Origin: a virus
Virus record (IMG/VR): IMGVR_UViG_3300009514_000014
Coordinates: 1 to 64,000 of that record
Strand: one strand, 5' to 3'
Length of the DNA: 64,000 nucleotides
Each line of letters opens with the position of its first letter. The stretch's first letter is position 1. Positions 10,703 to 26,941 of this stretch are shown here, piece by piece. Made by a program: the position numbers and the translations under genes. Below the pieces are notes generated by a model. It ran no database searches and was not told the origin of the DNA. It saw only the letters and a program-made list of their open reading frames with translations.

Positions 10703-11867
10703 CTTCCATCTCCCCGAGAGTTTCAGTCTCTTCGAAGGTCGTGTCAGCTCGCGCAGCGAAGGACTCCGCTGTAGCGATAGGGAACTCTTTGCCGTCCAGA
10801 GGCCGCACAGACTTCGGCGCGTCAGGGTCGACGGCGTCTTGCTCGCGTATCCAACCCAGGATGGCGTTTTGGAAGGCCTGCGGTGTCATGTCAGGATTGA
10901 AGGCTGCGTGTACCACGTGGGAGCCTTGCTCGGTATCGCCGCCTACAGAGGCGCGACGGATGGCTGAGCCTTCCTCCATGAACTCTGGGCTCGGACGCTG
11001 CAGTCGCTCGAACTGCTTGTGCGCTTCCCGCACGCAGTCCTCAAGCATGCGGATGACGCCATCTTCGGTGTGCGCGTCGACGACTATCTTGGCGCTGAAG
11101 CGTCGTTTGATCGGGGAGAGTTGGTCAGACATCTGATGGGTCCTTTGTCGGCGGTAGCAGCTGCAGGCCGTTTCGTTTGCGGTGAGCTTCAATCGCTGCG
11201 TCGCTCGCGGCGGCTTGTGGGTTGATGATGTTGATTAGTTCGTCGCGGGCATCTGAGAGCGCATTCATCGCCGCATTGTAACGTTGCAGCAGCGCAGTAG
11301 GTATCTCGACCTCAAACCCGTTGAAGGGTTGAAAGTCGAACAGTGCTACTTGGTAGATGATTGCGCGCGTTTTAGTTTGGTTAGGCATCTGTGCTCGTGC
11401 CATGGTGTAAGCATCAACCCGCCCACACCGCCTTTCATTTTATGTTTCAGGTACTAGTCTGTCAACAGTTAACCTTGTGTTGGGCCGTCAGGGTACAACG
11501 CCCAAAGGGTGGGGCCACCGGGCCTGTGAGACACTTCAACGTGTGCTCTGGGGTAACGTTTTTGCAGTGCGGCTGCGAAGACTCTGATGTCCGCGTCGTC
11601 GTCCACTAGGCCAAAGACGTGGCGAAAGTGCAGTCCGCAGGTCATGCCTTTGGCGAGGTTGCTTCCGTCACCAGAATCAGTTGTAGTGTAGCCGAGCTCG
11701 TTGAGTTCGATCACCAAGTCTTTGATGCCTGGAGCCAGTGCGTTTTTTGTTGCTTCGTCCATACTGCACATCATAACGTTGTGATAAAAAAACTCAACAT
11801 TTTTTCACATACTAAAATTTAGGTGTTGACAGGCGCGACCAATTAGGTCAGAACCGTAGACAAGCAA

Positions 11868-12035
11868 ATGGAACGATCAAGACTCATAGCCACTTCGGCA
11901 TTATCCAGCGCGACATCACATCTGATGTTTAGTTGGAACGATTGCATCCTCCCCGTGGGGGGCTTGCTCGGCACGCGCATTTATGCGTCGGCCAATCAAG
12001 AGCAGGCGACCCCAAAAGGAGGCCCAGGCGGCTAA
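11868..12035 (+). CDS. putative attenuator leader peptide, 55 aa (MERSRLIATSALSSATSHLMFSWNDCILPVGGLLGTRIYASANQEQATPKGGPGG)
   Basis: ATG 11868 to TAA 12033-35; the 3' end GGCGGCT is complementary to the 5' arm of the downstream terminator; SD is weak. Confidence 0.6.
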   Translation: MERSRLIATSALSSATSHLMFSWNDCILPVGGLLGTRIYASANQEQATPKGGPGG

Positions 12036-12061
12036 GGACTCGACAGGAGTAACACGAGACC

Positions 12062-12100
12062 AAAGGCCGCCAGGGAAAACCCGGTGGCCTTTTTCTTTTT
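12062..12100 (+). terminator. intrinsic terminator/attenuator directly before the tRNA array
   Basis: AAAGGCCGCC-A-GGG-AAAA-CCC-GGTGGCCTTT followed by TTCTTTTT. Confidence 0.85.
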
Positions 12101-12181
12101 GGATGCGCTGGGCAAGTGGCGAGCCCACCCGGCTGTAAACCGGACGTGAGAGCTGTGCAGGTTCAACTCCTGCCGCATCCA
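12101..12181 (+). tRNA. tRNA-Tyr(GTA)
   Basis: GGATGCG/CGCATCC acceptor, loop CTGTAAA, TTCAACT. Confidence 0.9.
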
Positions 12182-12244
12182 CACGGAGGAGAGGTAAAGA
12201 TGGAACACGAACGAAAACCGAAGCTCGACGCCATCAGTTATTCT

Positions 12245-12317
12245 GCCTCCGTAGCTCAAAGGAAGAAGCAAGGGACTTTTAATCCCGAGGTTGCTGGTTC
12301 GATTCCAGCCGGGGGTA
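12245..12317 (+). tRNA. tRNA-Lys(TTT)
   Basis: cloverleaf, loop CTTTTAA. Confidence 0.9.
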
Positions 12318-12476
12318 TCAGCGACGAGCTGCTAGCCGAATTCGACAATCGGGTGACGTTAGCCTACGTCGGTATCTACAACGCGTTCAAGGTGCCGAAG
12401 GATTTGCTTCGTGGCGGGTCCATGCAAGAAAACATGACTCGTGCGGTTATGCGACACATGCTTCGACGGTGATTGA

Positions 12477-12547
12477 TCGGGACTCGTCCAACGGTAGGAC
12501 GTCAGCCTCTGGAGCTGAATATCGGGGTTCAAATCCCTGGTCCCGAA
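12477..12547 (+). tRNA. tRNA-Gln(CTG)
   Basis: cloverleaf, loop CTCTGGA. Confidence 0.9.
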
Positions 12548-12677
12548 TGTGTGATAGATGTTCATGGCGGCGGCTGTCCGCAGCGCGACCGATCTAGGGC
12601 ATCGACACTCTTTGATAATCGAATAGTAGATCATGGTCACGTGAGTCTAGCCGAAAGGCCGTAATGGCTCGCGTTGT

Positions 12678-12751
12678 GGCCCTATAGCTTAGTCTGGTAG
12701 AGCATCCGGCTCATAACCGGGCGGTCTCTGGTTCAAATCCAGGTGGGGCCA
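12678..12751 (+). tRNA. tRNA-CAT (probably Ile2, lysidine type)
   Basis: GGCCCTA acceptor, loop CTCATAA. Confidence 0.85.
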
Positions 12752-12757
12752 CTTTAC

Positions 12758-12829
12758 GGCGAGATAGCTCAATCGGTAGAGCAGTGGACTGAAAATCCGC
12801 GTGCGGGAGTTCGATTCTCCCTCTTGCCA
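12758..12829 (+). tRNA. tRNA-Phe(GAA)
   Basis: cloverleaf, loop CTGAAAA. Confidence 0.9.
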
Positions 12830-12835
12830 TCTTGT

Positions 12836-12906
12836 TCCGAGATCATCTAACGGTAGGATGACAGCCTTTGACGCTGTTTATCTGGGTTCGAATCCCAGTC
12901 TCGGAT
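12836..12906 (+). tRNA. tRNA-Gln(TTG)
   Basis: cloverleaf, loop CTTTGAC. Confidence 0.9.
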
Positions 12907-12913
12907 TTCTACT

Positions 12914-12987
12914 CGGGGTGTAGCGCAGCCTGGAAGCGCATCTGCTTTGGGAGCAGAGAGTCGAAGGTTCAAATCCTTTCACCCCGA
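12914..12987 (+). tRNA. tRNA-Pro(TGG)
   Basis: CGGGGTG/CACCCCG, loop TTTGGGA. Confidence 0.92.
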
Positions 12988-12989
12988 CT

Positions 12990-13122
12990 TTGATGGACCG
13001 CTTGATGTTGGGTAATCAATCAAACTGATAATTTGAACGACTGAGGTTCGATTCCTCGGGGCCCCAAAACTGCGGGGCCGTTGGACGGGAAAAAGCTCCA
13101 GCGTCTACTCTTTGTTCATCAA
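12990..13122 (+). ncRNA. Y RNA-like (YrlA-type) copy 1
   Basis: terminal stem TTGATGGAC(C)G/TGTTCATCAA with bulged C; inside, an anticodon-like arm (CTGATAA), T arm and loop-closed acceptor GGCCCC/GGGGCC. Confidence 0.7.
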
Positions 13123-13137
13123 AAATATTTTACGATT

Positions 13138-13206
13138 TGCGGACCGACAGCGACCGGTTACCCCTTTTCCAAAGAAGCCAATCCGATCGTGTAAAACTTG
13201 TTCGCA
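13138..13206 (+). ncRNA. minimal Y RNA-like copy 2 (no tRNA domain)
   Basis: TGCGGAC(C)GA/TTGTTCGCA stem plus an imperfect inner stem, GGTTAC motif. Confidence 0.6.
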
Positions 13207-13210
13207 TTCT

Positions 13211-13286
13211 AGATCTGTAGCTCAGCCCTGGTTAGAGCGTTCGCCTGATAAGCGAGAGGTCGGCGGTTCAACTCCGCCCAGATCTA
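13211..13286 (+). tRNA. tRNA-Ile(GAT)
   Basis: cloverleaf, loop CTGATAA. Confidence 0.92.
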
Positions 13287-13292
13287 TTTTAT

Positions 13293-13365
13293 GGTAGATG
13301 AGGCCGATAGGCGAGGCGCATGTTTGTGGTGCATGTCGTAGCGGGTTCGATTCCCGTCATCTACC
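13293..13365 (+). tRNA. tRNA-His(GTG)
   Basis: G-1/C73, loop TTGTGGT. Confidence 0.88.
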
Positions 13366-13368
13366 CAA

Positions 13369-13497
13369 GACGGACCGAAGAGCAAAGTGGATTATCGCAC
13401 GGGTAGTTCAATTGGTAGAATGCCCGGTTTAGCTACTGGGAGGTCGCTGGTTCGAATCCAGCCCCATGTACTTCCACGCTCGACTTACTTGTTCGTC
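13369..13497 (+). ncRNA. Y RNA-like copy 3 enclosing a canonical-order tRNA-like domain
   Basis: GACGGAC(C)GA/TTGTTCGTC stem; 13397-13470 folds D-AC-T with a non-canonical anticodon loop. Confidence 0.65.
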
Positions 13498-13618
13498 AAC
13501 TTTTTTGGGTTGCACAGGCTGCGTGATGCACATGCGGTCTGACGGCTGGGACGTAGCGTGCATCAGCTTCGCCTTGGCTTTGGTCGGGTTCATCACCTGT
13601 CCAGGCTCAAACATTCTT

Positions 13619-13691
13619 GGGGCCATAGCTCAATTGGGAGAGCGCCTGCCTTGCAAGCAGGAGGTCGCCGGTTCGACTCCGGCTGGCTCCA
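13619..13691 (+). tRNA. tRNA-Ala(TGC)
   Basis: G3:U70, loop CTTGCAA. Confidence 0.95.
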
Positions 13692-13775
13692 CTAGATCGC
13701 GTGCCCTACCGGCACAGCGTACAAACAACTTTCAGCGGTTTTTTCCTGCTGGACCGACTTGCACGCGATCACCAT

Positions 13776-13848
13776 GGGGATGTAGCTCAGCTGGGAGAGC
13801 ATCTGTCTGGCAGACAGAAGGTCCGGGGTTCGAGACCCCGCATCTCCA
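13776..13848 (+). tRNA. tRNA-Ala(GGC)
   Basis: G3:U70, loop CTGGCAG. Confidence 0.92.
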
Positions 13849-13933
13849 CTAGGACAAAAAAGGGAACCCATTTCTGTCACTATGAATCCTTCGTGCATTG
13901 GTTGATGCTGTGTGCAGTCAATAGGAGAGTTCA

Positions 13934-14164
13934 GTGCAGCAAACACCAGACAGTGCAGATCCGCCAATGAGTGTCGAAGCCATACATCGTGAGCTGTTGG
14001 CTGGAGTAGTTAGTCTTCGTAAAATATATCTCGCCATGCAACGTGGTGAGCTTCGGTCTACGAAACTGGGGCGGCGACGTGTTGCTCGCAGATCGTGGGT
14101 TGAAAAATGGATTGATGGTGAAGACCAATGGTCCGATGTGTCTTGTGGTCCGGGACCGCTTTAG
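13934..14164 (+). CDS. excisionase-like (HTH_17) DNA-binding protein
   Basis: VSLRKIYLAMQRGELRSTKLGRRRVARRSWVEKWI pattern. Confidence 0.6.
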   Translation: MQQTPDSADPPMSVEAIHRELLAGVVSLRKIYLAMQRGELRSTKLGRRRVARRSWVEKWIDGEDQWSDVSCGPGPL

Positions 14165-14292
14165 GCCCCACGTGGGAGACCTGCCAAGGCGCAGGTCTGG
14201 CAATCCATCCCGGCGCAGCAACAGGAGGGTGTTCTAACACACGTCTCGCCTGCAGGTGACGAGTCAGGTGAGAGCCCTGAACTCCTGACCAC

Positions 14293-14365
14293 GCGAGTGA
14301 AGCTCATATGGTCGAGCGCCAGCCTTCCAAGCTGGATGCAGTCGGTTCGAATCCGATCACTCGCT
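14293..14365 (+). tRNA. tRNA-Gly(TCC)
   Basis: cloverleaf, loop CTTCCAA. Confidence 0.92.
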
Positions 14366-14374
14366 CAAGTATTA

Positions 14375-14473
14375 GGGAATGCTGCTCCATGGGGGGCATT
14401 CGATTGCATATCCTTGTTGCCACGCTAGGCGACCGCTCGTAATCGATTATCAAGTTCGATTCTTGCACTCCCC
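14375..14473 (+). ncRNA. tRNA-like RNA with a permuted Y-RNA stem in place of the anticodon loop
   Basis: GGGAATG/CACTCCC acceptor, D and T arms; arm TCGATTGC/GTAATCGA extended by TGTTGCC-loop-GGCGAC(C)G. Confidence 0.55.
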
Positions 14474-14544
14474 GTTTTTTCTTGACGACCTTCGTTCTAT
14501 CTGGTGTAATCTCGCTGTTATTCCAATCTATACGGAGGATTCCA

Positions 14545-15522
14545 ATGGCAGCAATCCCTGACAACTATGGCACCGGCGGAACAGGCCTCGACCCTACCGG
14601 CACAGATTCACAACCATCTTTGGCTTTGTGTCTCCGCGACGTCGCCGACGACCTCGCAGAGCTTCGAACGGCCTTGGTGGCGGTAACCGCGCAACTTGAC
14701 TCGGAGATGTCCCTGGATGAATCTCTCGAGCTCATCAACGATATTCGAGCCAAGTTCATCGCCCACATGGCGCTGACGTCGAGCCACCCGAACGCCGACA
14801 CCACGAACGTCGTCACGGCGCCCGTGGCTACCGACTTGGCATCAGGCTACACGCTAGCCAACGATCTCAAAGTTCAGATCAACGCCCACTTCCTCGACCT
14901 CAGCAGCCTCGAAGAAGCCATCACGCTCGTCAACGACCAGGTCACGCAGTACGAAGCGCACCGGGTCTATGATACCGGCTCCGTCCACAACGGCTCGCCA
15001 GACACCACCAACGTGGTCACGGCCGCAGTCGCGACCGACCTCGCCACCGCCATCACGCGCGCCAACGACCTCAAAGCGATGTACGAAGCCCACCGGGTTC
15101 TCGCGACAACGCACACCAACCCAGACGCGACGAACACGATCGCTGCCGCCGACGCATCGGACCTCGCTACGTTGAAGACGTTGCTCAACGAGTACAGCGT
15201 CGACCACGACGCTCACATCATCTTGACCGCCGGCCCCGTCCACGGTGGCGCCGACGCCGTCAACGGCATCACCGAGCCCGATGTCGACAATGCAGCCATC
15301 CACACCAACGACGACGTCACCAATATCGTCGCGGCAGCGGACGCTACAACCGCAGCTACCTTGGTCACGTTGGCCAATGAGCTCAGCACCGACTACGAAG
15401 CGCATCGCGCTCTGGCGACCTCGCACAGCGCTGCCGATACGACCAACGTCATTCAAGAAGGCGTCGCCGGCTCGAACTACGCAGCCAACGACCCCGCAGC
15501 GCTCAAGACCACCAAGGCCTAG
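14545..15522 (+). CDS. putative virion structural/decoration protein with internal repeats
   Basis: SD GGAGG; Ala/Thr/Asp-rich with repeated H..DTTNVVTA.VATDLA...ANDLK units. Confidence 0.6.
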   Translation: MAAIPDNYGTGGTGLDPTGTDSQPSLALCLRDVADDLAELRTALVAVTAQLDSEMSLDESLELINDIRAKFIAHMALTSSHPNADTTNVVTAPVATDLASGYTLANDLKVQINAHFLDLSSLEEAITLVNDQVTQYEAHRVYDTGSVHNGSPDTTNVVTAAVATDLATAITRANDLKAMYEAHRVLATTHTNPDATNTIAAADASDLATLKTLLNEYSVDHDAHIILTAGPVHGGADAVNGITEPDVDNAAIHTNDDVTNIVAAADATTAATLVTLANELSTDYEAHRALATSHSAADTTNVIQEGVAGSNYAANDPAALKTTKA

Positions 15523-15548
15523 TGCCTTTACGGTTGACTCTGTAGGCC

Positions 15549-15908
15549 ATGTCAGCTACCGTAGCTGGCATGGCTACGCAATTTCCTGCATCAATCACCA
15601 CTTTAGGCTCGGCTCTGCGGCACCTCCGCAACGCGCGCGGTCTTACGATTCGTGGGCTCGCCGCCAAGATCGGTTTGAGCGCTGCGTTTATCTCAGACCT
15701 CGAGCAGGACCGGCGGTCGACGAATCGAATCGGAGACATCGCAGAGGCACTCGACGTCAAAGTAGAAGATCTGCAGTGCTTCGATAGCAGGTACGTTACC
15801 GCTCGAGTGCGGATGTGGATGGATGTCACACCGGGCGTCGGCAAGTTGCTCATGTCAATGATGGATGACGGACGACCCGTCGACGAGCTTCAAGAATTAT
15901 TCGACTAG
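15549..15908 (+). CDS. XRE-family HTH transcriptional regulator
   Basis: LRHLRNARGLTIRGLAAKIGLSAAFISDLEQDRR. Confidence 0.85.
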   Translation: MSATVAGMATQFPASITTLGSALRHLRNARGLTIRGLAAKIGLSAAFISDLEQDRRSTNRIGDIAEALDVKVEDLQCFDSRYVTARVRMWMDVTPGVGKLLMSMMDDGRPVDELQELFD

Positions 15909-15995
15909 GAAGGGTTGGGCATTGGCAAGCCTCGCTGCCTCGAAAACAGTCGACCAGGGAAACCCGGTCTGGGGGTTCAACTCCCCCTCCTTCCG
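15908..15995 (+). tRNA. tRNA-Ser(CGA)
   Basis: long variable arm, loop CTCGAAA. Confidence 0.85.
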
Positions 15996-16064
15996 CTTGC
16001 AGGATAGGGGAGTCAGGTCGTACGGTTATTGCCAACGTAGGGACGATTGTGTAATGTCGCAGGT

Positions 16065-16472
16065 ATGCCTTACAAGAATTATGACGCGCAGCTAGCTTAT
16101 TATCGGGCCTGGTACAAGGCGCGTCGGGATGCATGGTTTGCAGCCAAGCGCTGTGTCGATTGCGCTACGGAAGACGATTTGCAACTTGATCATCGCGACC
16201 CGTCGCAGAAAGTATCGCACAGGGTTTTTGGGTGGAGACGCGCCAGACGTGAAGCTGAGTTAGCAAAATGCGATGTGCGTTGTGGTCGCTGTCATCGAAT
16301 AAAAACAGCGGCAATGAGTGAGGGCTCGTTCAAATACAAAACGGATATAGTACGAGAGGTGCATCGGTTGCGTGAGACTGGTTTATCCTTCGGCGCTATC
16401 GCGAAAAAAATAGGTGTCAGCAAATCCCATGCACATAGAATCGTGTGCGGTGTTGCTCGCACTGAGGTGTGA
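16065..16472 (+). CDS. HNH endonuclease with C-terminal HTH
   Basis: CVDC..LQLDHRDP...CDVRCGRCHRIKT; GLSFGAIAKKIGVSKSHAHRI. Confidence 0.85.
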   Translation: MPYKNYDAQLAYYRAWYKARRDAWFAAKRCVDCATEDDLQLDHRDPSQKVSHRVFGWRRARREAELAKCDVRCGRCHRIKTAAMSEGSFKYKTDIVREVHRLRETGLSFGAIAKKIGVSKSHAHRIVCGVARTEV

Positions 16473-16544
16473 TGCGGAATACCCAATTGGCAAGGGGCCG
16501 GGTTCATATTCCGGTAGATGTCGGTTCGATTCCGGCTTCCGCTA
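16473..16544 (+). tRNA. tRNA-fMet-like (CAT)
   Basis: 1:72 mismatch, GGG in anticodon stem, loop TTCATAT. Confidence 0.8.
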
Positions 16545-16547
16545 GAA

Positions 16548-16615
16548 GAGGAAAACGCAGGTTCGATTCCTGCCTGGTTGCTGCACATCGGTCGTCTAGT
16601 GGTAAGACGTCCCCT
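16548..16615 (+). ncRNA. permuted tRNA-like module (T arm - closed acceptor - D arm)
   Basis: GCAGG-TTCGATT-CCTGC precedes GTCT-AGTGGTA-AGAC. Confidence 0.5.
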
Positions 16616-16624
16616 GCTAAAACT

Positions 16625-16709
16625 GGAAGACACCCTTCAAGGTGGAGGAGCGGTCTGCTACACCGTGGAGTTGAAACATACTTGCGGGGTTCGATTCCCC
16701 GGTCTTCCG
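16625..16709 (+). tRNA. tRNA-Ser(GCT)
   Basis: GGAAGAC/GTCTTCC, loop CTGCTAC, long variable arm. Confidence 0.8.
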
Positions 16710-16722
16710 TAGGAGAACAAAC

Positions 16723-17121
16723 ATGAGTTCCCCGCACGCATATTTGATGGTGCTGATTGACGTCAAACCTACGCCGATGCAGGTGCGAGGTTTCATGATC
16801 TCCAGCGACGACAATCCCGAGTTGGCGTCCAGCGGATTGCGGTGGTTGTAGGGCGCAGTCGGCTACGGCGACAGTTACCAAGAGGCCGCCAATAATCTCG
16901 TCACGCTGGTCAAGTCGGACCCACTGTGGAAGTGGGTGCAGGAGCTCCCATCGTGGCCGCGCTACGCAAAACGAAACGTCACAGAAGCCAAAGCGGAGGC
17001 GGCAGCGTGTGAGGTCGACCCGCGATTTTCTGTCTTGCATCGGTTGCCTCAGGCTGACCGGGACGCCATCTTCGAGTTCGCAATGCAACGGTCTGATGCG
17101 ATTCTCAGGGGAGAAGACTGA
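16723..17121 (+). pseudogene. hypothetical gene interrupted by an in-frame TAG (16849-16851)
   Basis: SD AGGAG + ATG 16723; the frame continues for 89 sense codons after the TAG. Confidence 0.5.
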
Positions 17122-17122
17122 T

Positions 17123-17389
17123 ATGAAAATCATCGATCGTCGGCACCACGCACCGCCGCCAACCAAAGCCGAGCTCGCCGCGAAGCTCATGGAGGAGCTG
17201 ACGCGAGCAGCGATGGAAGACGGCATGTTCTGGACGACGAGACAGGCGCCGACGGTGCCAGGTGAGAAGATTGCGGCGCTTAGTTCAGCGCAGCGAGAGC
17301 TGCTCCAACATCTCGACGCAGAGACGATGAAGCGAGTCATGGAGCCTCGCTACGTGCATCAGATCGACTTCACGCGAACGTTCAATTGA
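17123..17389 (+). CDS. hypothetical protein
   Basis: SD and ATG immediately after the upstream stop. Confidence 0.5.
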   Translation: MKIIDRRHHAPPPTKAELAAKLMEELTRAAMEDGMFWTTRQAPTVPGEKIAALSSAQRELLQHLDAETMKRVMEPRYVHQIDFTRTFN

Positions 17390-17391
17390 TT

Positions 17392-17478
17392 GGAGAGGAT
17401 GTCACAAGGTGTGGCAGCTGTCTGGAAAGCAGTCATGGTACCGAGGGTGCCAGGTGGGTTCGATTCCCATTCTCTCCG
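17392..17478 (+). tRNA. tRNA-Ser(GGA)
   Basis: loop CTGGAAA, long variable arm. Confidence 0.85.
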
Positions 17479-17480
17479 TT

Positions 17481-17629
17481 GTGCAAAGGACCGATTGTTT
17501 GGGTTACCCTCCCCCGTCACTGTGGGGGAGTAGCATTGTGGTGATGCGCCGGGGCTCCACCCCTCGGAGACGCGGGTTCGACTCCCGTCCTTTTGGAATT
17601 CTCCAAGCTAACTTTTTTCGTTCTTGCAT
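17481..17629 (+). ncRNA. Y RNA-like copy 4
   Basis: GTGCAAAGGAC(C)GA/TCGTTCTTGCAT stem, TTGGGTTAC motif, internal D, AC and T arms. Confidence 0.65.
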
Positions 17630-17676
17630 GAAACGCGGTGAGCGTCATCCTGTGGAAGGTGGCGTTTACCGCACCT

Positions 17677-17751
17677 GGGGGTGTGGTCCAGCCTGGAGTG
17701 GACGCTGGCTTGTCACGCCAGAGACCGCCGGTTCAAATCCGGTCATCCCCG
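17677..17751 (+). tRNA. tRNA-Asp(GTC)
   Basis: loop TTGTCAC. Confidence 0.92.
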
Positions 17752-17754
17752 TAC

Positions 17755-17827
17755 GCGGTTGTAGCTCAGCAGGCAGAGCGTTTGGTTGCCAATCAGAAGG
17801 TCGCCGGTTCGAGACCGGCCAGCCGCA
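17755..17827 (+). tRNA. tRNA-Gly(GCC)
   Basis: loop TTGCCAA. Confidence 0.9.
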
Positions 17828-17839
17828 TAAGGAGCTCAA

Positions 17840-18106
17840 ATGGGTTTCGCAGAGATTCTTTTGGAGTTGCAGCAACTCAACCCGTGCGCATTGCTCGCGG
17901 ACGGATTCGAAAGTGCGCTCATCGGCATCGGTCGGCAAGCGCATCAGTATTTGGCTGTCTACGACTACGCCAAGTGCGTCGAGCTCCTGATGGACGGCGA
18001 CGGCATGACGCACGAGATGGCGTCGGAGCACATGGAGTTCAACGTTGTAGGCTCCTACGTTGGACCGAATACGCCGATCTTTTTGCAAAGGCCGAGCGAT
18101 GATTAA
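17840..18106 (+). CDS. conserved hypothetical phage protein
   Basis: ADGFESALIG..AVYDYAKC...EHMEFNVVGSYVGPNTPIF, a motif common in phages. Confidence 0.75.
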   Translation: MGFAEILLELQQLNPCALLADGFESALIGIGRQAHQYLAVYDYAKCVELLMDGDGMTHEMASEHMEFNVVGSYVGPNTPIFLQRPSDD

Positions 18107-18574
18107 GTCGAGCACCACTCTCGAAGAGGCTGAAAGGCTTGTTCGACAGAACCTGTCTAGGCACCATTACACGTCTGCCACAAACGACGTCACGGGCGAT
18201 CTTACTACGACTTTCGTTGTGCGAGATGTAGCCGTAAATTGGGCCGGGACGACGTACAATTACCCGCGATTCAACGTGCATGAGACCGAGGAAGAAAAAC
18301 GGCATCGACTTGCTGCAGAGAAAGCTTCACTTGTATCCGGTCGGTCGCGAAAGCGCGCTCCGAATTGGATGACTCCACCCCTTCCGCCACGCAGTTCGGT
18401 AGCCCGAGCACCTTGGATGCAAGCCAGTGGAATGCCGGCGTCGAATTCTGGCGGGCGTAAAAGACCGTCTCGCAAGCGGAAAGCAGCGACGGAGGGCAGA
18501 CGCTACCGCAGGAAGAGTTGAATAGATCTCAGTTAGTTAGTAAAGTGTAGCTGCCTGTATTCTAGGAGAGCTGC

Positions 18575-20083
18575 ATGGCCATCATAGACTGGACTACGAA
18601 TTACCCTGCAACGCAGGACTCGACGCCTCCGACCACGGAGCAGCCAGACCTGTCCAATACTACCGATGAGACGCGCGTCTCTCAAATCGCGACGTTACGT
18701 GACAAGCTGGATGCGGTGGCAAAGAAGCTCGGTGATGACGGAGATCTGCCGGCTGGCAGCGCTGTTGCCAGACTGACAGCTCTCGAGTCAACACCCGCCG
18801 TCCATCTACTCGGTAGCGCGACACACACTGCTGATACGTTGGCGAACTTGAACGCCAAGATCAGCGATGCGACGTTGATTGATACTGCGGACTCTCGCCT
18901 GTCAGATGCCAGGGAGGCGACAGGGTTGCAGACCTCCGGCGCGACGGTTGTCGTTTCGGCTGCTGCACCGCCTACAACCGATCAAGTGTTGAAGGCGACC
19001 AGCGCTACCACGGCGACGTGGCAAGACGAGATGGCGGTGACAGCGCATGCCTTGGGCGGTATCGAGCACAACCTCGATACCCTCGCCAATCTCAATGCCA
19101 AAATCAGCGACGCTACCCTCGTGGACACCGGCGATTCGCGCTTCAGCGACGACCGTACGGGCAGCAAGCTGCGGACTGCGACCACAGAGGTTGTGATATC
19201 CGGTGCAACGGCCCCGACAGCAGGGCAGATGCTAGTCGCCTCTTCGACTACCCTCGCCGCGTGGGCCACTCCGAAGTTGGACGACTTGGCCACCCCTGAC
19301 GACAACACCGATCTTGACGCTACTATCGTTCAGCACGGTTTGTTGCCGAAACTTGGCGGTGGGACGGCAAACTTTCTGCGTGCAGACGGTGCGTGGGCGG
19401 CGCCATCAGGCGGTGTACCTGGCGCGCATGACCTTGACTCGCATAACGCGAATACGTTAGCCGAGCTCAATGCCATCATAACTGGCGGCGACCTTGATTA
19501 CGATTCTGCAAGTCGTCCGCCGAATGGTTCGGCGAGTGGCGACCTCAGCGGCACATATCCAGGTCCAGCGGTGGCAGCGATCACTACGACGACCGGTCCG
19601 ACCAGCCTGACTGTAGGTGCAGTAGCCGATGGGGATTATCTCAAACGCGTCGGCTCAACAGTAGTAGGGGCGACACCTAACTACTGGCGACACGGCATTC
19701 ATTGGGGGACTGACGGCGAAGCGTCTTTGAGCACTACGAGCACCAGCTACGTCTTGTTGAAAACCTGGTACACACTGCTCCCCTCGGAGACGATCGCTCA
19801 GCTATCCAATATTCATCTGGCGTTGCAGTACGTCGCAGTAGGGACGCCCGGCACAGCCGAGATCAAGGTGATTTTTGACGCAGGCGGCACAGCCACTGTG
19901 AAGGAGTGGACCGGTCTGGTGGCGACTACGGCGGTCATAATCTCCGATCCTGGAATATCACCAGCCTCCATTCCAGCAGACAATACCCAGATTTTTGCTA
20001 TCGAGTTGTGGGCAAGAGTTCCGACAGGGTTCGCTGGTGGTGTAGCTATTGAGTTCTTAGAGATCAACTGGGTCTACAACTAG
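18575..20083 (+). CDS. putative tail/head fibre protein
   Basis: Thr/Ala/Gly-rich, internal repeats (DTLANLNAKISDATL), GDLSGTYPGP. Confidence 0.7.
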   Translation: MAIIDWTTNYPATQDSTPPTTEQPDLSNTTDETRVSQIATLRDKLDAVAKKLGDDGDLPAGSAVARLTALESTPAVHLLGSATHTADTLANLNAKISDATLIDTADSRLSDAREATGLQTSGATVVVSAAAPPTTDQVLKATSATTATWQDEMAVTAHALGGIEHNLDTLANLNAKISDATLVDTGDSRFSDDRTGSKLRTATTEVVISGATAPTAGQMLVASSTTLAAWATPKLDDLATPDDNTDLDATIVQHGLLPKLGGGTANFLRADGAWAAPSGGVPGAHDLDSHNANTLAELNAIITGGDLDYDSASRPPNGSASGDLSGTYPGPAVAAITTTTGPTSLTVGAVADGDYLKRVGSTVVGATPNYWRHGIHWGTDGEASLSTTSTSYVLLKTWYTLLPSETIAQLSNIHLALQYVAVGTPGTAEIKVIFDAGGTATVKEWTGLVATTAVIISDPGISPASIPADNTQIFAIELWARVPTGFAGGVAIEFLEINWVYN

Positions 20084-20094
20084 GGAGCAACACG

Positions 20095-22248
20095 ATGGAC
20101 GTTAGACGATACGGTGCCACTGGCGATGGTGTAACTGATGACACTGCAGCCATCCAAGCCTGCTTGGATGGCCTTCCGCCAAATCGTACTGTGGGCGTGA
20201 ATGGCAGCGAAACGGTCAGAGCGGTTGTCCCGCCTGGAACTTACATGATCAATGCGGTCACCAAGCTTATACCGCCAGCTGGCGTTGTGATCGAGTTCCT
20301 CGACGGTGCGGTGTTTCAGGTCATCACCAACGATCAGGATGCGTACCGCTGCCTCGAGTTGACGGCGAATGGCATCACCTTGATCAATCCGACGGTAGTT
20401 GGGGATCGCACCACCCATACGGGCGGCACAGGTGAGCACGGGCATGGAATTGTGCTGTCCGGAAACAACTGCACGATCATCAACCCTACAGTCAGTGACT
20501 GCTGGGGGGACGGAATCGCTATTTACGGCGGCACCGGTAATACGCTTACGAATGTCACCCTCAATAACAACCGCCGAAACAACCTAACGATCACATCGTC
20601 AATAGACTTGCTGATCGACGGGGCGCTGATAACAAACGCCAACGGGGTGAATCCACAGCTCGGAGTGGATATCGAGCCCAACACCACAGCCGACGATCTC
20701 TACAATGTTGTGCTTCGAAACATTCGCACGAGTGGCAACACCAATGGTGGAATGCTTGTATCTTTGGCGACGCTCATCAACGTTGACAAGACGATCAAGA
20801 TCGAAATCGATAACCACCACGATGATGCTGCTGGATCAATTGGGAGTTCACTATCCCTGAGCCACGCGCTTACATCGGCTAGCTACCTCCTAGATGGCTC
20901 AATCACTGTGCGCTACCCGTACAGCGACACTCCCGGAGCGAACGGGATTGAGGTGCGCAATTGGCACGCGGTCGATACTCCTGCGATTTTGATCGATTAT
21001 CCGTTTTGTCGTAATCCAAACGAGGTTGATCAGGCATCGGGGAAATACGGATCGGGCATCGCTTTCTATTCGGAGGCTGGTGATGGTGCAGGTACGCGCG
21101 GAAACTGTACAATCCGCAATCCGATCTGCATAGACGACCGCGAAACTCCACGAGTAGTTAATGCGTTTCATGTCGTAGGAACCGGCCTCCAGAACCTTCA
21201 TCTGATCGATCCTATAAGGTGGGAGGGGATGGCCCCTGAGCTGATGATGGCTGGCCAAAACGGGGGCGTGAAGGTGAAGGACAGCTTTGGCGTGATGACT
21301 CGCGTTGTGCCGGGCGGGGCTACGACGATGTACGCGCCTCTTGTGACGAAGATTCATAACGAGGGGGCAGCATCCCGTTCTGACATCTACCTCTATCGGC
21401 AGTGGCTGGAGCCGGTGCCGTTGACGCTGGAAAATCGAACGAGCTTCGGACTGCGGATTTACCCAGGAGACGCAGGATATGAAGCTGCTTGCTACCCGTT
21501 GCAGCCATCGGCGGGTACTTTCTTCGAGACCACCGAGATTGGCGCGTCGATCACACTCGTGCAGACGGATGACACTGAGTACTACGTCGATAAAGTCATA
21601 GGCGTATGGACAGGTGGCGGGGCAGGCGGCGGGGATATCACCGCTATCCATGACGACACCGCCAGCGAGATTAGTGCCATCACTGAAAAGACGGCGCCGG
21701 TTGGTGCCGATATGGCGTTGATCGAAGACAGCGCCGCAGCCAACGTCAAGAAGATGGTGCAGCTGTCCAACCTCGGTTTGGCGATCAAGCTCGATGATCT
21801 CGCAGCACCTGATGATACCACCGACCTGGATGTGTCGACGTCGCTGCATGGACTCACCCCCAAGGCGCCCAACGTCGCTCGACAGCGTCTTGATGGCACT
21901 GGCTCATGGGTCGTCCCTGGGGTCGACATTGGCGTCAAGGACACTAGCTACGGTGTCACTTCGGCGGACAACTTGGTCGTCTTCACCAATGAGGGCGCAC
22001 TTGGATTGGTGACGTTCACGTTGCCGACGGCCGTCGCCGGATTGCAGTACTCGTTCGTCACGATCGATGGCGACGGCATCAGAATCGACGCCAACACCGG
22101 CGACACAATTCGTATTGATACTGCAGTCAGCGCCTCCGCTGGCTACATTCAAGGTACAACAATCGGCGAGACAATCACTCTTGTCGCCGTCAATGCCACT
22201 GAGTGGGTTGCGTTGTCCTACGTTGGCACCTGGACGATCGACTCCTAA
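20095..22248 (+). CDS. tailspike with pectate-lyase-like beta-helix domain
   Basis: VRRYGATGDGVTDDTAAIQA, SDCWGDGI, GVDIEPN. Confidence 0.8.
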   Translation: MDVRRYGATGDGVTDDTAAIQACLDGLPPNRTVGVNGSETVRAVVPPGTYMINAVTKLIPPAGVVIEFLDGAVFQVITNDQDAYRCLELTANGITLINPTVVGDRTTHTGGTGEHGHGIVLSGNNCTIINPTVSDCWGDGIAIYGGTGNTLTNVTLNNNRRNNLTITSSIDLLIDGALITNANGVNPQLGVDIEPNTTADDLYNVVLRNIRTSGNTNGGMLVSLATLINVDKTIKIEIDNHHDDAAGSIGSSLSLSHALTSASYLLDGSITVRYPYSDTPGANGIEVRNWHAVDTPAILIDYPFCRNPNEVDQASGKYGSGIAFYSEAGDGAGTRGNCTIRNPICIDDRETPRVVNAFHVVGTGLQNLHLIDPIRWEGMAPELMMAGQNGGVKVKDSFGVMTRVVPGGATTMYAPLVTKIHNEGAASRSDIYLYRQWLEPVPLTLENRTSFGLRIYPGDAGYEAACYPLQPSAGTFFETTEIGASITLVQTDDTEYYVDKVIGVWTGGGAGGGDITAIHDDTASEISAITEKTAPVGADMALIEDSAAANVKKMVQLSNLGLAIKLDDLAAPDDTTDLDVSTSLHGLTPKAPNVARQRLDGTGSWVVPGVDIGVKDTSYGVTSADNLVVFTNEGALGLVTFTLPTAVAGLQYSFVTIDGDGIRIDANTGDTIRIDTAVSASAGYIQGTTIGETITLVAVNATEWVALSYVGTWTIDS

Positions 22249-22265
22249 ACAACAATCACATACCT

Positions 22266-22339
22266 CGGGATGAGGGCTTGATGGTAAGCCGCCTGGTTCG
22301 GGGCCAGGAGTTGTGCGAGTTCGACTCTCGCCATCCCGA
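22266..22339 (+). tRNA. tRNA-Pro(CGG)
   Basis: loop TTCGGGG. Confidence 0.88.
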
Positions 22340-22340
22340 T

Positions 22341-22475
22341 AGAGAGGACCGCAGATTTGGATTATCTATTGGAACGGGAAGTCGCAGGTTCAAGTCCTGC
22401 TGCGGGCCTAGCCCGTATAGTTCAGTCGGCAGAACGCCCGTCTTGAAACTCCAAGTCGTTTCCTTTGTTCTCTCT
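22341..22475 (+). ncRNA. Y RNA (classic YrlA topology) copy 5
   Basis: AGAGAGGAC(C)G/TGTTCTCTCT; T arm, closed acceptor TGCGGGC-CTA-GCCCGTA, D arm. Confidence 0.8.
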
Positions 22476-22482
22476 CGCTTTT

Positions 22483-22590
22483 TGGATGGACCGCTTGTCT
22501 TGGGTTATCTGGTTAAGCAGCCGGCTAGTTCGCCGGTAAAGCTAGACGGGTTCAAATCTCGTCATCCAAGCAAATTTCTTCGTTCATCCA
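22483..22590 (+). ncRNA. Y RNA-like copy 6
   Basis: TGGATGGAC(C)G/CGTTCATCCA; TTGGGTTATC; AC-like and T arms. Confidence 0.7.
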
Positions 22591-22594
22591 TTTT

Positions 22595-22679
22595 GACCTT
22601 GTGGCGGAATAGGTAGACGCGCTAGATTCAGAATCTGGTCCTCGCAACGGGGGTGAGAGTTCGACTCTCTCCAAGGTCA
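22595..22679 (+). tRNA. tRNA-Leu(CAG)
   Basis: loop TTCAGAA, long variable arm. Confidence 0.92.
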
Positions 22680-22683
22680 CAAC

Positions 22684-23010
22684 ATGAAAAAGAAGAAGAA
22701 ACCGAAGATGAATCCGGTTTTGACTCTGCGGAAAGCCTGGGTGTCGTTGGTCCGCACGCGAATCAAAGCTGAAACTGAATTGCTGCAGGTGCTGGCCGAA
22801 ATCGGCGAACCGGAGCTCGACGAAGATGGCTTCGACAACTTGCCACGGTTGGACGACAACGTCGCAGTGCAGCAGGCTGTGACGTACTTCAGGACGGTGT
22901 TTCTGGCGTCACCGGATTCACAAGCAGCGACTGACTTGATCAATCGACTGAATCGGTCGCATTGGGCTCCTGTGCCGTACAGAGGGACAGGGCGCCTGGT
23001 TCAACGTTAG
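22684..23010 (+). CDS. hypothetical protein
   Basis: ORF fills the gap between tRNAs. Confidence 0.5.
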   Translation: MKKKKKPKMNPVLTLRKAWVSLVRTRIKAETELLQVLAEIGEPELDEDGFDNLPRLDDNVAVQQAVTYFRTVFLASPDSQAATDLINRLNRSHWAPVPYRGTGRLVQR

Positions 23011-23011
23011 C

Positions 23012-23083
23012 GCCCGTAAAGCATTGACGGCGATGCGCCGGCCTCGTAAGTCGGGGAGTCGGGTTCAAGTCCTGATACGGGCT
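23012..23083 (+). tRNA. tRNA-Thr(CGT)
   Basis: loop CTCGTAA. Confidence 0.9.
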
Positions 23084-23154
23084 CACTACGTTTACGTAGC
23101 TCGGCGGTGCTGAGCACGTGATCGTGAGGTGGGGTTTTTAGAGTAAGTTTGTTT

Positions 23155-23227
23155 GCCCTCGTAGCTCATACGGTAGAGCAGCTGCCTTGTAAGCAGCAGG
23201 CGACCAGTTCGAGTCTGGTCGAGGGCT
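23155..23227 (+). tRNA. tRNA-Thr(TGT)
   Basis: loop CTTGTAA. Confidence 0.92.
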
Positions 23228-23236
23228 TTTGTAGTA

Positions 23237-23366
23237 TCTCTGGAGAGCTCGGATGGTCGAGCGCCGTAAACATCCAGCGCGTCTTTTTGTTCATCTTGAT
23301 GGACCGCTTGTGTTGGGTTATCGCTTTAGGGGCCGGAGGAGGGGGTTCGAATCCCCCGCCAGAGAA
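23237..23366 (+). ncRNA. circularly permuted Y RNA (tRNA ends, internal Ro-binding hairpin)
   Basis: TCTCTGG/CCAGAGA acceptor, D arm, then TCCAGCGC..TTGTTCAT-CTTG-ATGGAC(C)G..GTGTTGGGTTATC, then T arm. Confidence 0.7.
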
Positions 23367-23367
23367 T

Positions 23368-23502
23368 TCGAGGACCGAAAGATTTTGGATTATCCCTGCT
23401 AAGGACGAGGCCGCAGGTTCGAATCCTGCACACTCCAAACTGGGGGGTGTTAGCTCAGCGGTAGAGCACGTAAAACTCCAGAGTCAACTCTCTTGTTCTC
23501 GA
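23368..23502 (+). ncRNA. Y RNA (YrlA topology) copy 7
   Basis: TCGAGGAC(C)GA/TTGTTCTCGA; T arm, closed acceptor ACACTCC/GGGGTGT, D arm GCTC-AGCGGTA-GAGC. Confidence 0.8.
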
Positions 23503-23505
23503 TTT

Positions 23506-23578
23506 GGGTTGCAAGCTCATGAGGAAGAGCGCCCGGCTGTTAACCGGATGGTTTTGGGTTCGAATCCCAAGCGACCCT
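23506..23578 (+). tRNA. tRNA-Asn(GTT)
   Basis: loop CTGTTAA. Confidence 0.88.
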
Positions 23579-23584
23579 CACGTT

Positions 23585-23659
23585 GTCCCTGTCGTCTAGC
23601 GCGGCCAAGGATGTCGGCTTCTCACGCCGGAGACACGGGTTCAAATCCCGTCAGGGACG
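23585..23659 (+). tRNA. tRNA-Glu(CTC)
   Basis: loop TTCTCAC. Confidence 0.92.
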
Positions 23660-23663
23660 TACT

Positions 23664-23737
23664 GACCTAGAAGGCGAACTGGTAGAGCCGTCAGCCTTTC
23701 AAGCTGAAGATAGCGGGTTCAAGTCCCGTCTAGGTCA
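23664..23737 (+). tRNA. tRNA-Glu(TTC)
   Basis: loop CTTTCAA. Confidence 0.88.
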
Positions 23738-23756
23738 CTTGCTGAAGGAATGCACA

Positions 23757-24086
23757 ATGGCGAAGAAGCCAGTCGTTATCACCATGCGCGTCACCTTTGA
23801 GGTCAACCCGCCCGTCAAGGACGCGCTGCCGGAGCTCGTGACGTCTGTCGAGTTGACGCCAAAAGATCTCAAGCGCAAGAACGTCGCCGAGCGCGCTGTT
23901 CTTAGGCTTCGCAGAGCACTTACCAATGGTGCTGCGGCCTTTGAGATGGTAGGGTCAGGACTCAACAAGGCGATCCGAGAAGCCATCGGAGCGCAAAAAG
24001 GGGAGAAGTCTAAATGCCACACCCAACACAAAGCCACGTCAGACGTCTCGTCAAATCCAAAACTGTCGAGCCACCTGCTTGTGTAG
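23757..24086 (+). CDS. hypothetical protein
   Basis: SD AAGGA, ATG 23757. Confidence 0.5.
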   Translation: MAKKPVVITMRVTFEVNPPVKDALPELVTSVELTPKDLKRKNVAERAVLRLRRALTNGAAAFEMVGSGLNKAIREAIGAQKGEKSKCHTQHKATSDVSSNPKLSSHLLV

Positions 24087-24898
24087 TCTCTGGCCTGCAG
24101 TTCGAGACGCTGATGGGCTCACATGCCTACGGGGTTTCCACCGACCAGAGCGACGCAGACATCTACGGATTCTGCACTCCGGAGAAGCAAGACGTCTTCA
24201 CGCACCTCAAAGGTGTGATCCCCGGCTTTGACAAGCAAGTGGCCAACTTCAAGTTGTGGCAACAGCCGCATGTCACCTGGCGTCACAACCTTGAGCCGAT
24301 GTCACCTGGCGTCGCCAAGTTCGATTTCAACATCTACTCGATTATCGAGTTCTTCAGTCACGCCATGCGTAACACGCCCAACGTGTTGGACTGCTTGTTC
24401 GTTCCTGTGGACGTGATCACCTTCCGCACGAAACTCGCCGACATGGTGCTTGAACGTCGCAAGCTCTTCTTGCACAAAGGCGCCAAGCATCGCTACCTCG
24501 GATTTGCTCACAGTCAGTTGGACAAGATGCGAAAGCTGGCTGCAGAGAACGAAGCCGAAAAAGGCGAGATAGCGACGTTCAAGCAAAACGCGCGACAGGT
24601 CAAGGCACTGAAGCACGCGTACCATGCCGTACGGTTGTGCTTGCAGGTCCGCCAGTTGCTTGCCGACGGTGACATGCAATTCGTCTTCGCCCAGTACCTA
24701 CGCGAGATTCGCTCCGCAAAGTACTCGTACGAAGTCATCGTCGAACGTTGCGCGGAGTTGGAAGTTGAAATCGAAGAACTCTACGCCACCTCCAATGCGG
24801 TGCCCTACAAGCCTGACGAGCCTGCGATCAAGGAGCTCCTGCTCAATTGCCTCGAAGAGGCCTACGGCAGCCTTGACGGCTGCGTGGCACGCAGCTGA
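24014..24898 (+). CDS. Pol-beta superfamily nucleotidyltransferase (RlaP/YcgL-like)
   Basis: GSHAYGVSTDQSDADIYG, N.PNVLDCLF, KHAYHAVRL. Confidence 0.85.
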   Translation: MPHPTQSHVRRLVKSKTVEPPACVVSGLQFETLMGSHAYGVSTDQSDADIYGFCTPEKQDVFTHLKGVIPGFDKQVANFKLWQQPHVTWRHNLEPMSPGVAKFDFNIYSIIEFFSHAMRNTPNVLDCLFVPVDVITFRTKLADMVLERRKLFLHKGAKHRYLGFAHSQLDKMRKLAAENEAEKGEIATFKQNARQVKALKHAYHAVRLCLQVRQLLADGDMQFVFAQYLREIRSAKYSYEVIVERCAELEVEIEELYATSNAVPYKPDEPAIKELLLNCLEEAYGSLDGCVARS

Positions 24899-25185
24899 TG
24901 GCGCCTCTACGACGCTTGATCATCGCCGAGACGGCGTCCAGCACGTGGAGCTACCACCTGCGGATCCTTGAGCCCGGTGAAGAACCAAAGTATGGTGGAG
25001 GGGCTGGTTTCGCGCTGTGTGGCGCAAAGGTTGGCTGGGACACACAGATGCCAATGAGCGCATGGGACAAAAAGGTCGCGCACATTCCAGAGTCTTTTTG
25101 CGTTAAGTGCGAGCTAGAAGCCGCAAAGCGAGGATTCACCGTCGCAGCGGCGGCGGACAGGGAGGAGTCCAGTGGACAAAAGTAG
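24898..25185 (+). CDS. hypothetical Zn-binding protein
   Basis: YHLR...ALCG...CVKC. Confidence 0.5.
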   Translation: MAPLRRLIIAETASSTWSYHLRILEPGEEPKYGGGAGFALCGAKVGWDTQMPMSAWDKKVAHIPESFCVKCELEAAKRGFTVAAAADREESSGQK

Positions 25186-25543
25186 ACGCGGATTCTTCAA
25201 ACGGATAGGTCTCGGTGTCGGTGCGGCGGTTGTTGCCGGTTTGCCCGCCAAGGTTGCCGCAGAACAAGCTCCACGAGTCCTCAAAATCATCAACTGCGTC
25301 GAAGGCGCTAACGTAGGCGTGTTCGAACATACCGAAGGGCGCCAATTGTTTCTTGGCTCCACCGTCTCTGATGGCGTTGTGGATGGCATTGTTGAAGTAC
25401 CGATGGATGAGCTCGCCGTCCAGACTGTCGTTGTGCGGGTGCGCAAGTGGGGCTACGTGCCGTTCAGTCATACTTGTGAGCTGCGCGAGAGCGGGCTCAC
25501 CATAGTCAGCGCTTACATGCGTCTGGACGAGTTGTTGACCTAA
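25172..25543 (+). CDS. hypothetical protein with Tat signal peptide
   Basis: SRRGFFK + h-region + VAA cleavage-like site. Confidence 0.6.
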   Translation: MDKSRRGFFKRIGLGVGAAVVAGLPAKVAAEQAPRVLKIINCVEGANVGVFEHTEGRQLFLGSTVSDGVVDGIVEVPMDELAVQTVVVRVRKWGYVPFSHTCELRESGLTIVSAYMRLDELLT

Positions 25544-25549
25544 CGTGCT

Positions 25550-25882: not shown

Positions 25883-25891
25883 ATAGTTTTT

Positions 25892-26802: not shown

Positions 26803-26875
26803 GCCGGCGAAGCTCAATAGGCAGAGCGCCTGCTTGGTATGCAGGAGGTTATCGGTTCAATTCCGATCGTCGGCT
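26803..26875 (+). tRNA. tRNA-Thr(GGT)
   Basis: loop TTGGTAT. Confidence 0.9.
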
Positions 26876-26941
26876 CTCCGAATTAATGGGGTACTACAAT
26901 AGGTAAACGAGGTACTTTCGCGATTCGAGTACCGCATTTGT

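Follow-up and report, generated by a model that had tools for sequence, protein, structure and literature searches.

A codon-diverse leader before a phage tRNA array, a candidate attenuator of a complete tRNA set

Introduction

The described systems closest to the one analysed here are the attenuators of amino-acid operons (trpL, hisL, leuL, pheL, and the multivalent thrL and ilvGMEDA) and of pheST (pheM). They share with it a short open reading frame (ORF), which in the phage is putatively promoter-proximal, an intrinsic terminator, and a segment at the end of the ORF that can pair either upstream or with the 5' arm of the terminator. Our subject is a 55-codon ORF and the hairpin behind it, which stand directly before a long array of transfer RNA (tRNA) genes in a phage. 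They lie in a stretch of 64 kb (positions 1 to 64,000 of IMG/VR record IMGVR_UViG_3300009514_000014) that we call the window, the first part of an 84-kb phage sequence that is ca. 50% complete and has a GC content of 56%. As in those attenuators, we propose that the position of the ribosome decides between the two pairings and that the product feeds back on the switch. There are also clear differences. The known attenuators regulate enzymes or synthetases, have leaders of 14-32 codons and contain a run of one regulatory codon, whereas the phage leader precedes tRNAs, is 55 codons long and has a near-maximal codon diversity (35 of the 39 tRNA species of the phage are called on). Besides, and unlike in those leaders, the core of the peptide is conserved, and the phage system is known from sequence alone.

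Codon compensation and the escape from tRNA-cleaving host defences are the current ideas on the role of phage tRNA genes (PMC10264068, PMC11555353, PMC11464382). Outside phages, the trn L-array of Anabaena sp. PCC 7120 is silent and becomes induced under translational stress (PMC8421152), with TrcR as its repressor (PMC10272220). It is likewise a long accessory tRNA array with an expression tied to impaired translation, as we propose for the phage, but it is cellular and its control is exerted at the promoter, through direct repeats and the repressor; the words leader, attenuat- and terminator are absent from its description (PMC8421152). The leaders of the ermC type and those of vmlR, msrD and Pseudomonas PA5471.1/armZ are similar in that the slowing of a ribosome on a short leader refolds the RNA and turns the downstream genes on. 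To our knowledge, none of them is built to sample the whole codon table. Their signals are drugs that target the ribosome, acting at specific peptide contexts, and the genes under their control are resistance genes (PMC13041342, PMC10314930). T-box riboswitches also sense tRNA charging and work by a terminator/antiterminator switch before translation-related genes; however, they have no ORF and bind the tRNA directly, while the phage leader has an ORF and no T-box match. In the literature we found neither leader-peptide control of tRNA genes nor a published account of a leader that samples a whole tRNA repertoire.

Results and Discussion

The leader and the tRNA array

We give a probability of roughly one half (ca. 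0.5) to the proposal that the ORF is the leader peptide gene of a ribosome-mediated, trp-type attenuator of the tRNA operon, which would sense decoding across the repertoire by means of a track that covers nearly all of it. The features concerned are collected in Table 1. ARAGORN predicted 41 tRNA genes in the array, plus a transfer-messenger RNA (tmRNA) and one further tRNA at 36386. The array tRNAs serve all 20 amino acids, and there are 39 distinct three-nucleotide anticodons in the window. The gene located 5' of the leader (11469-11774) is on the opposite strand, which makes the intergenic region divergent. Because of this, and because the T-tract adjoins tRNA-Tyr and leaves no room for a promoter, any transcript of tRNA-Tyr has to come through the ORF and the hairpin.

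Table 1. Positions of the features of the leader and of the array in the window
Feature	Position	Strand	Remarks
-35-like TTGACA, putative leader promoter	11826..11831	+	conserved in G004
Leader ORF	11868..12035	+	ATG to TAA; 55 sense codons, 42 of them distinct; all 20 amino acids
5' side of in-ORF hairpin H1 (segment 1)	11929..11969	+	codons Phe21-Leu34; pairs with 12000-12035
3' side of H1	12000..12035	+	RNAalifold consensus of window and G004
Predicted antiterminator conformer	12023..12075	+	12023-12025:12073-12075 and 12027-12033:12065-12071; encloses spacer hairpin 12036-12061
Predicted intrinsic terminator	12062..12100	+	stem 12062-12092, loop AAAA, T-tract 12090-12100 (11 nucleotides)
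tRNA-Tyr(GTA), first gene of the array	12101..12182	+	begins on the base right after the T-tract
Unit proposed to be gated	12101..31494	all +	41 tRNA genes and tmRNA, with protein genes interspersed

A sequence-only reading of this DNA had described a codon-rich 55-codon ORF with AGA, ATA, TTA and CGA among its codons, a strong terminator with tRNA-Tyr right after its U-tract, an array of 41 tRNAs and an alternative hairpin that excludes the terminator. All of these were recovered; calling the genome GC-rich was an overstatement at 56%. The same reading had proposed the ORF as a candidate pan-codon attenuator, that is, a leader that would stall when almost any tRNA is depleted or cleaved.

Sampling of the tRNA repertoire

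Each codon was assigned to one of the tRNA species of the phage itself, by exact anticodon first and by standard wobble second. Counted in this way, the window leader calls on 35 of the 39 species, to be compared with a mean of 25.7 (standard deviation 2.6, maximum 35) in the 34,997 55-codon windows of the six frames. Apart from the leader frame, a single stretch, antisense to tRNA genes, attains the value of 35. The related phage G004, described below, repeats the picture with its own set of tRNAs: 37 of its 44 species are called on by the leader (mean 24.2, standard deviation 3.4), a value not attained elsewhere in 50 kb of its sequence. Only 13 of the 55 codons are identical between the two aligned leaders. 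If these are regulatory codons, their match to the regulated product is one of diversity, with no run of any codon.

The number of distinct codons, which the sequence-only reading had proposed to compare with other windows of this genome, is also extreme. At least 42 distinct codons were found in 0 of 10,805 55-codon windows of proxy genes, with a frequency of 0.0008 in six-frame stop-free windows and of 0.0011 when codons were sampled independently from an identical distribution. The full set of 20 amino acids is much more common in windows of this length (2-4.5%), but the 38-residue core of the peptide (H18-G55) holds all 20 by itself, and this happens with a frequency of 0.0011 among windows.

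Protein searches gave three further peptides of the family (P0004, P0005 and P0006; 40, 42 and 56 amino acids). All five members, 40-56 amino acids long, hold the 20 amino acids, the one of 40 included, and the residues present in single copy (D, K, F, V, I and R) occupy different alignment columns in different members. When residues were shuffled within columns all five peptides were complete in 15 of 20,000 trials (p = 7.5e-4), and relabelling with the partition of the columns kept gave 9e-4 with the invariant columns fixed and 3e-5 with none fixed, although such nulls hold only approximately, given the relatedness of the sequences and the conservative nature of real substitutions.

The related phage and the peptide family

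G004 is an 82-kb contig with a portal protein 58% identical to that of the window phage and a leader region with 70% DNA identity. The order of elements is a T-rich block, TTGACAG, a homologous ORF, a spacer hairpin, a long hairpin and a tRNA-Tyr-like gene, followed by a syntenic array of more than 45 tRNAs. The ORF has 56 codons, starts at the aligned position (GTG, with GGAG 9 nucleotides upstream) and ends in the same GGPGG-stop. ORF, terminator and the complementarity between the end of the ORF and the terminator arm are all kept, the opposite of a relative that had retained the terminator without the others, which the sequence-only reading would have taken as contrary evidence. The G004 tRNA-Tyr homologue (L064 1465-1548, - strand) has an insertion of 8 nucleotides in the D-arm region; it was missed by ARAGORN, and Infernal scored it best with the tRNA-Sec model (38 bits).

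In protein sets of 5.8 billion and 1.84 billion sequences only four peptides besides that of the window were found, and a profile search of the 1.84 billion representatives added none. G004 was the only relative that came out of scanning contigs (viral, metagenome and genome) with profiles and patterns; single-sequence searches of viral contigs, with the flanking 101-amino-acid protein and with the leader peptide, gave no match. A total of 89 pattern matches in metagenomes were discarded as unrelated frames with no adjoining tRNA. The more distant portal relatives G001, G003 and G005-G007 are uninformative because they have no tRNAs, and no tRNAs were found either at the loci with homologues of a 346-amino-acid gene of the array. 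No relatives at the DNA level were found among the INPHARED phages; the closest cultured portal protein has 32% identity, and Rhizobium and Rhodobacter phages are among the top matches.

Coding potential of the leader

As far as sequence can show, the leader ORF is coding and under frame-specific purifying selection. Comparison of the window with G004 gave 16 codons that differ by one base; the change is synonymous in 10 of them (expected 4.4; p = 0.003), and no synonymous excess was found for this pair in the other two frames (5/17 and 5/21). The GC content of the G004 ORF is 0.82 at third codon positions (GC3), compared with 0.59 and 0.57 at first and second positions, and the indels among the five family peptides are all in frame. 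The conserved pattern of the peptide is W..C.LP...EQA..GGPGG-stop, with the C-terminal GGPGG-stop, W, C, LP, Y, N and EQA invariant. The leader peptide had no match in Pfam or PHROG. AlphaFold, from a shallow alignment, gave a confidence (predicted local distance difference test, pLDDT) of 52 and hardly any secondary structure, with a single 3-residue helical turn.

The invariant residues bring to mind a nascent-peptide arrest sensor like those of TnaC and SecM; the conserved peptide would then stall the ribosome near the stop codon in response to a ligand or state. There may be a loose likeness to arrest peptides. A stall at the stop codon would hide the antiterminator strand and thereby promote termination, which leaves the logic of such a sensor unclear, and the pairing of the RNA accounts equally well for the conserved motifs, so that we regard this explanation as very improbable.

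Structure of the leader RNA

The 3' side of the hairpin inside the ORF (H1) includes GAGCAGGC (12000-12007) and a Shine-Dalgarno-like AAGGAGG (12016-12022), and contains segment 2, CCCAGGCGGCU (12023-12033), which overlaps the stop codon. It coincides with the EQA...GGPGG-stop region of the peptide and is also the strand that can pair with the arm of the terminator. In the antiterminator, CCC/GGCGGCU (including the first base of the stop codon) would pair with GGCCGCC/GGG (12065-12075). The two conformers are mutually exclusive, with predicted energies in the window of -24.7 kcal/mol for the antiterminator (z = -4.2) and -24.0 kcal/mol for the terminator (stem about -24 kcal/mol, z = -4.5 against shuffles). 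The fold of the whole leader has z = -5.6 in the window and z = -8.1 in G004, where the same 3+7 antiterminator pairs are allowed with a fold no better than shuffles (-23.6 kcal/mol, z = -1.2). In its predicted geometry, with pairing of the types 1:2, 2:3 and 3:4, the leader has the layout of the trp attenuator. The AAGGAGG was also considered as a ribosome-binding site for a downstream ORF and discarded, as no start codon comes after it.

The exceptional structure of the leader RNA could be expected as well if the promoter-proximal terminator were overcome by an antitermination factor of the phage or by the structured leader RNA itself, the ORF being secondary. The lambda PR'-tR' region with Q and the put RNA of HK022 are the models for factor-mediated and RNA-mediated antitermination, and a leader of ca. 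240 nucleotides ending in a strong terminator does head a co-oriented operon of 25 kb. However, this explanation leaves the codon and tRNA sampling extremes without a role, the coding signal is confined to the frame of the ORF, and no antiterminator gene turned up, although there was no systematic search for one. We consider it improbable.

Along similar lines, the RNA might be a structured non-coding one, for example a terminated small RNA (sRNA) that is set free at the hairpin or through RNase P cleavage at tRNA-Tyr, with an open frame that is only incidental. A hairpin with a U-tail is a typical sRNA 3' end, the two whole-leader z-scores are what such an RNA would give, and the conserved peptide motifs fall on paired segments. 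There is even a precedent for an sRNA derived from an attenuator, rnTrpL of Sinorhizobium (PMC7968998). Against it stand the synonymous excess found in the ORF frame only, the GC3 of G004, and the in-frame indels of the five homologues, and neither leader matches an Rfam family (cmscan gave no T-box, other riboswitch or other family with E up to 10 for the window and up to 1 for G004). As a replacement for the attenuator we find this highly improbable, but the two could hold side by side.

Switch models and proposed mechanism

To model the switch, a ribosome footprint of 30 nucleotides and all the RNA upstream of it were masked at each codon. With the full-length RNA of the window, the probability of the terminator was 0.81 without a ribosome and 0.92 with the ribosome at the stop codon, and went down to 0.05-0.48 with the aminoacyl (A) site at codons 28-32 and to 0.05-0.39 at codons 36-41. 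The other model was a co-transcriptional snapshot in which the RNA ends before the 3' arm of the terminator. Here the antiterminator had, in both phages, a probability of 0.98-1.0, which was 0 with the A site in the last six codons or at the stop and ca. 0.55 one codon earlier. Both models point in the same direction, with a delayed ribosome favouring read-through and a ribosome at the end of the ORF favouring termination.

The mechanism that we propose is as follows. Transcription from ca. 11860 would pass the 55-codon ORF and the intrinsic terminator before tRNA-Tyr and the remaining array. Pairing of the terminator 5' arm with the codons at the ORF end (CCA GGC GGC U) is possible and would keep the terminator from forming. 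When a ribosome keeps up with the RNA polymerase as far as about the last six codons or the stop codon, this segment would be covered, the terminator would form and the expression of the array would be low. If the ribosome were delayed earlier in the ORF, the segment would be free, the antiterminator would form and the polymerase would enter the tRNA genes. What is sensed would be how fast decoding runs overall, or that many different tRNAs are in short supply, with feedback by the phage tRNAs. We infer in this way the translation of the ORF, the function of the terminator, the direction of the switch and the stalls that count.

Only tentatively can the leader be taken for a true race track of decoding, in which the complete tRNA set would be induced whenever almost any tRNA is scarce or cleaved, or elongation slows down in general; we find this stronger form somewhat doubtful. 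In it, host anticodon nucleases, for example, would trigger the replacement tRNAs together with the tmRNA and the RNA-repair-type genes, and the new tRNAs would shut the switch off. A trigger of the kind that the sequence-only reading had proposed, by host anticodon nucleases or the toxins of toxin-antitoxin systems, would be plausible given the published work on phage tRNAs and tRNA-cleaving defences (PMC10264068, PMC11555353, PMC11464382).

Evidence against an attenuator

A number of observations weigh against the attenuator. Regarding expression, there is no Shine-Dalgarno sequence before the ATG of the window leader, and the -10 of its putative promoter (CAGAAC, 11849-11854) is poor, two caveats that the sequence-only reading had already expressed. 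Transcription from the TTGACA promoter would start at ca. 11860 and leave a 5' untranslated region of ca. 7 nucleotides before the ATG at 11868. A scan for consensus promoters and terminators called no + strand promoter at the leader; it also missed the bulged terminator (12062-12092), and a more permissive terminator scan of the window was too noisy beyond the strongest sites.

The models are a second source of doubt. The codons that would count are ca. 24-46 in the full-length model and 1-49 in the snapshot, and the two models differ as well in the default state expected when the ORF is not translated. The terminator of G004 (-29.5 to -32 kcal/mol) far outweighs the antiterminator (-23.6 kcal/mol), and in the equilibrium fold it forms at every position of the ribosome. 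The U-tract is also interrupted in this phage (UUUCGGCGUUUCU), and therefore the hairpin may terminate poorly. Covariation between the window and G004 consists of two fully compensatory pairs and one G-U/G-C pair in the terminator, a spacer hairpin in which the pairing is kept with a different sequence, and a UAA-to-UGA change of the stop, to which a synonymous change of Phe from TTT to TTC corresponds on the other strand of H1; but the family members for which there is DNA are just these two, which are not independent, and such small counts are anecdotes and not statistics.

Finally, selection at the amino-acid level on the 38-residue core would be expected of a functional small protein as well, and the diversity statistics are post hoc, since diversity was first noticed on the leader ORF itself; only the G004 and peptide-family results replicate. 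Nor is a terminator abutting a tRNA diagnostic alone in this phage, because tRNA-Ser(tga) at 31406 has one too, a second strong hairpin of 10 GC-rich pairs with a T-tract (31370-31405, + strand). This arrangement is absent from G004. The hairpin is directly 3' of an ordinary HNH homing-endonuclease gene (30859-31362), which looks like a mobile gene carrying its own terminator.

These data could also be explained if the ORF were an ordinary gene for a small phage protein, followed by a leaky terminator of its own; the tRNAs would then be expressed by constitutive partial read-through and the diversity would be a coincidence. The frame-specific purifying selection, the conserved core, the normal Shine-Dalgarno sequence and start of the G004 ORF and the terminator before tRNA-Ser all agree with such a gene, and completeness in 20 amino acids is not rare in itself at 2-4.5% of windows of this length. 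However, it would leave several things unexplained, among them the top or tied-top sampling of tRNA species in both phages with mostly different codons, the five complete peptides in which single-copy residues move, and an ORF end that doubles as a copy of the 3' arm of the terminator. The peptide has, besides, neither a family match nor a predicted fold. On balance we think that this explanation is unlikely.

With regard to the pan-codon attenuator of the sequence-only reading, the conservation in G004, the purifying selection, the sampling of tRNA species and the complete peptides speak for it, and what has not stood firmly is the identity of the sensed codons, which depends on the model, and the balance of the two conformers and the U-tract in G004.

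Comparison with phage phiCbK

The phage phiCbK (JX100813; L167, 46800-53000) has three cassettes of promoter, mini-ORF and terminator before blocks of tRNA genes. In its 45-amino-acid leader, 31 of 44 residues are P, K, L, A or S, which are exactly the amino acids of the block that follows (p = 5e-7). A second leader (QFVRQIQVV..NI) precedes a block for Phe, Val, Ile and Gln, and the two leaders compared with the two amino-acid sets give a Fisher p = 6e-6. The match is weak in the third one, of 20 amino acids and placed before a Glu/Asp block (3 of 19 residues, with 2.1 expected). The paper describing the phiCbK genome makes no mention of leaders or attenuation.

The likeness with the window is in the promoter (putative in the window), mini-ORF and terminator directly before tRNA genes, and in an ORF composition that mirrors the tRNAs behind it. 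The three phiCbK cassettes carry, in addition, a CTTGACA after a T-rich block, as the window does. The differences are of scale, since the phiCbK leaders are 20-45 codons long and each mirrors a block of few amino acids, whereas here one leader stands before an array for 20 amino acids and mirrors nearly the whole repertoire. There is no sequence homology between the window leader and those of phiCbK. The window leader fits the pattern of phiCbK taken to its limit.

Other features of the locus

The tmRNA lies within the array (25892-26256, + strand) and has the tag ANDNAYAEPMAQAA. Also inside the array are a nucleotidyltransferase gene (24014-24898, PHROG 388) and a pectate-lyase-like gene of 717 amino acids (20095-22248). 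One of the tRNAs (13397-13471, + strand) has an anticodon loop of 8 nucleotides (ARAGORN anticodon 'tagc') and an acceptor-stem mismatch and is devoid of the G3:U70 identity pair of Ala; the same position in G004 is a tRNA-Ala(cgc). It could be a quadruplet-reading tRNA or a defective one.

Several other hairpins were found. One of -33 kcal/mol with a minus-strand T-tract (28286-28325), between two + strand tRNA genes of the array, may be a terminator against antisense transcription, and a strong one without a U-tract (17631-17675, + strand, -26 kcal/mol) is immediately 5' of tRNA-Asp. Beyond the array, at 35395-35463 (+ strand), there is a strong terminator-like hairpin with a T-tract and another TTGACA at most 15 nucleotides downstream, a site where one + strand unit may end and another begin.

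On the minus strand, sigma-70-like promoters at 11770-11797 (TTGAGT-16-TATGAT) and 11437-11465 (TTGACA-17-TAAAAT) would drive the divergent genes, and the former overlaps a conserved CTCAAC block located 5' of the leader promoter. We also considered the hairpin at 12062-12092 as the terminator of a minus-strand gene, and discarded it because the gene begins upstream and points away. The minus-strand ORFs across the leader region were discarded as well; they overlap tRNA-Tyr and are not conserved features.

Significance

It has long been asked for what reason phages have tRNA genes and when these are expressed. Our rank statistic counts the tRNA species of a phage that are called on by the ORF before its array, and any phage with such an array is open to the same analysis. 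The closest case in print is the Anabaena array, which is induced under translational stress at the promoter level and through its repressor (PMC8421152). If the attenuator proposed here is real, tRNA genes would join the targets of attenuation, and attenuation of the trp type would be extended from a single amino acid to the whole translation capacity. The tRNA genes of this phage would then be under a demand-driven control, in which access to a complete tRNA set depends on a leader that tests decoding over almost the entire codon table.

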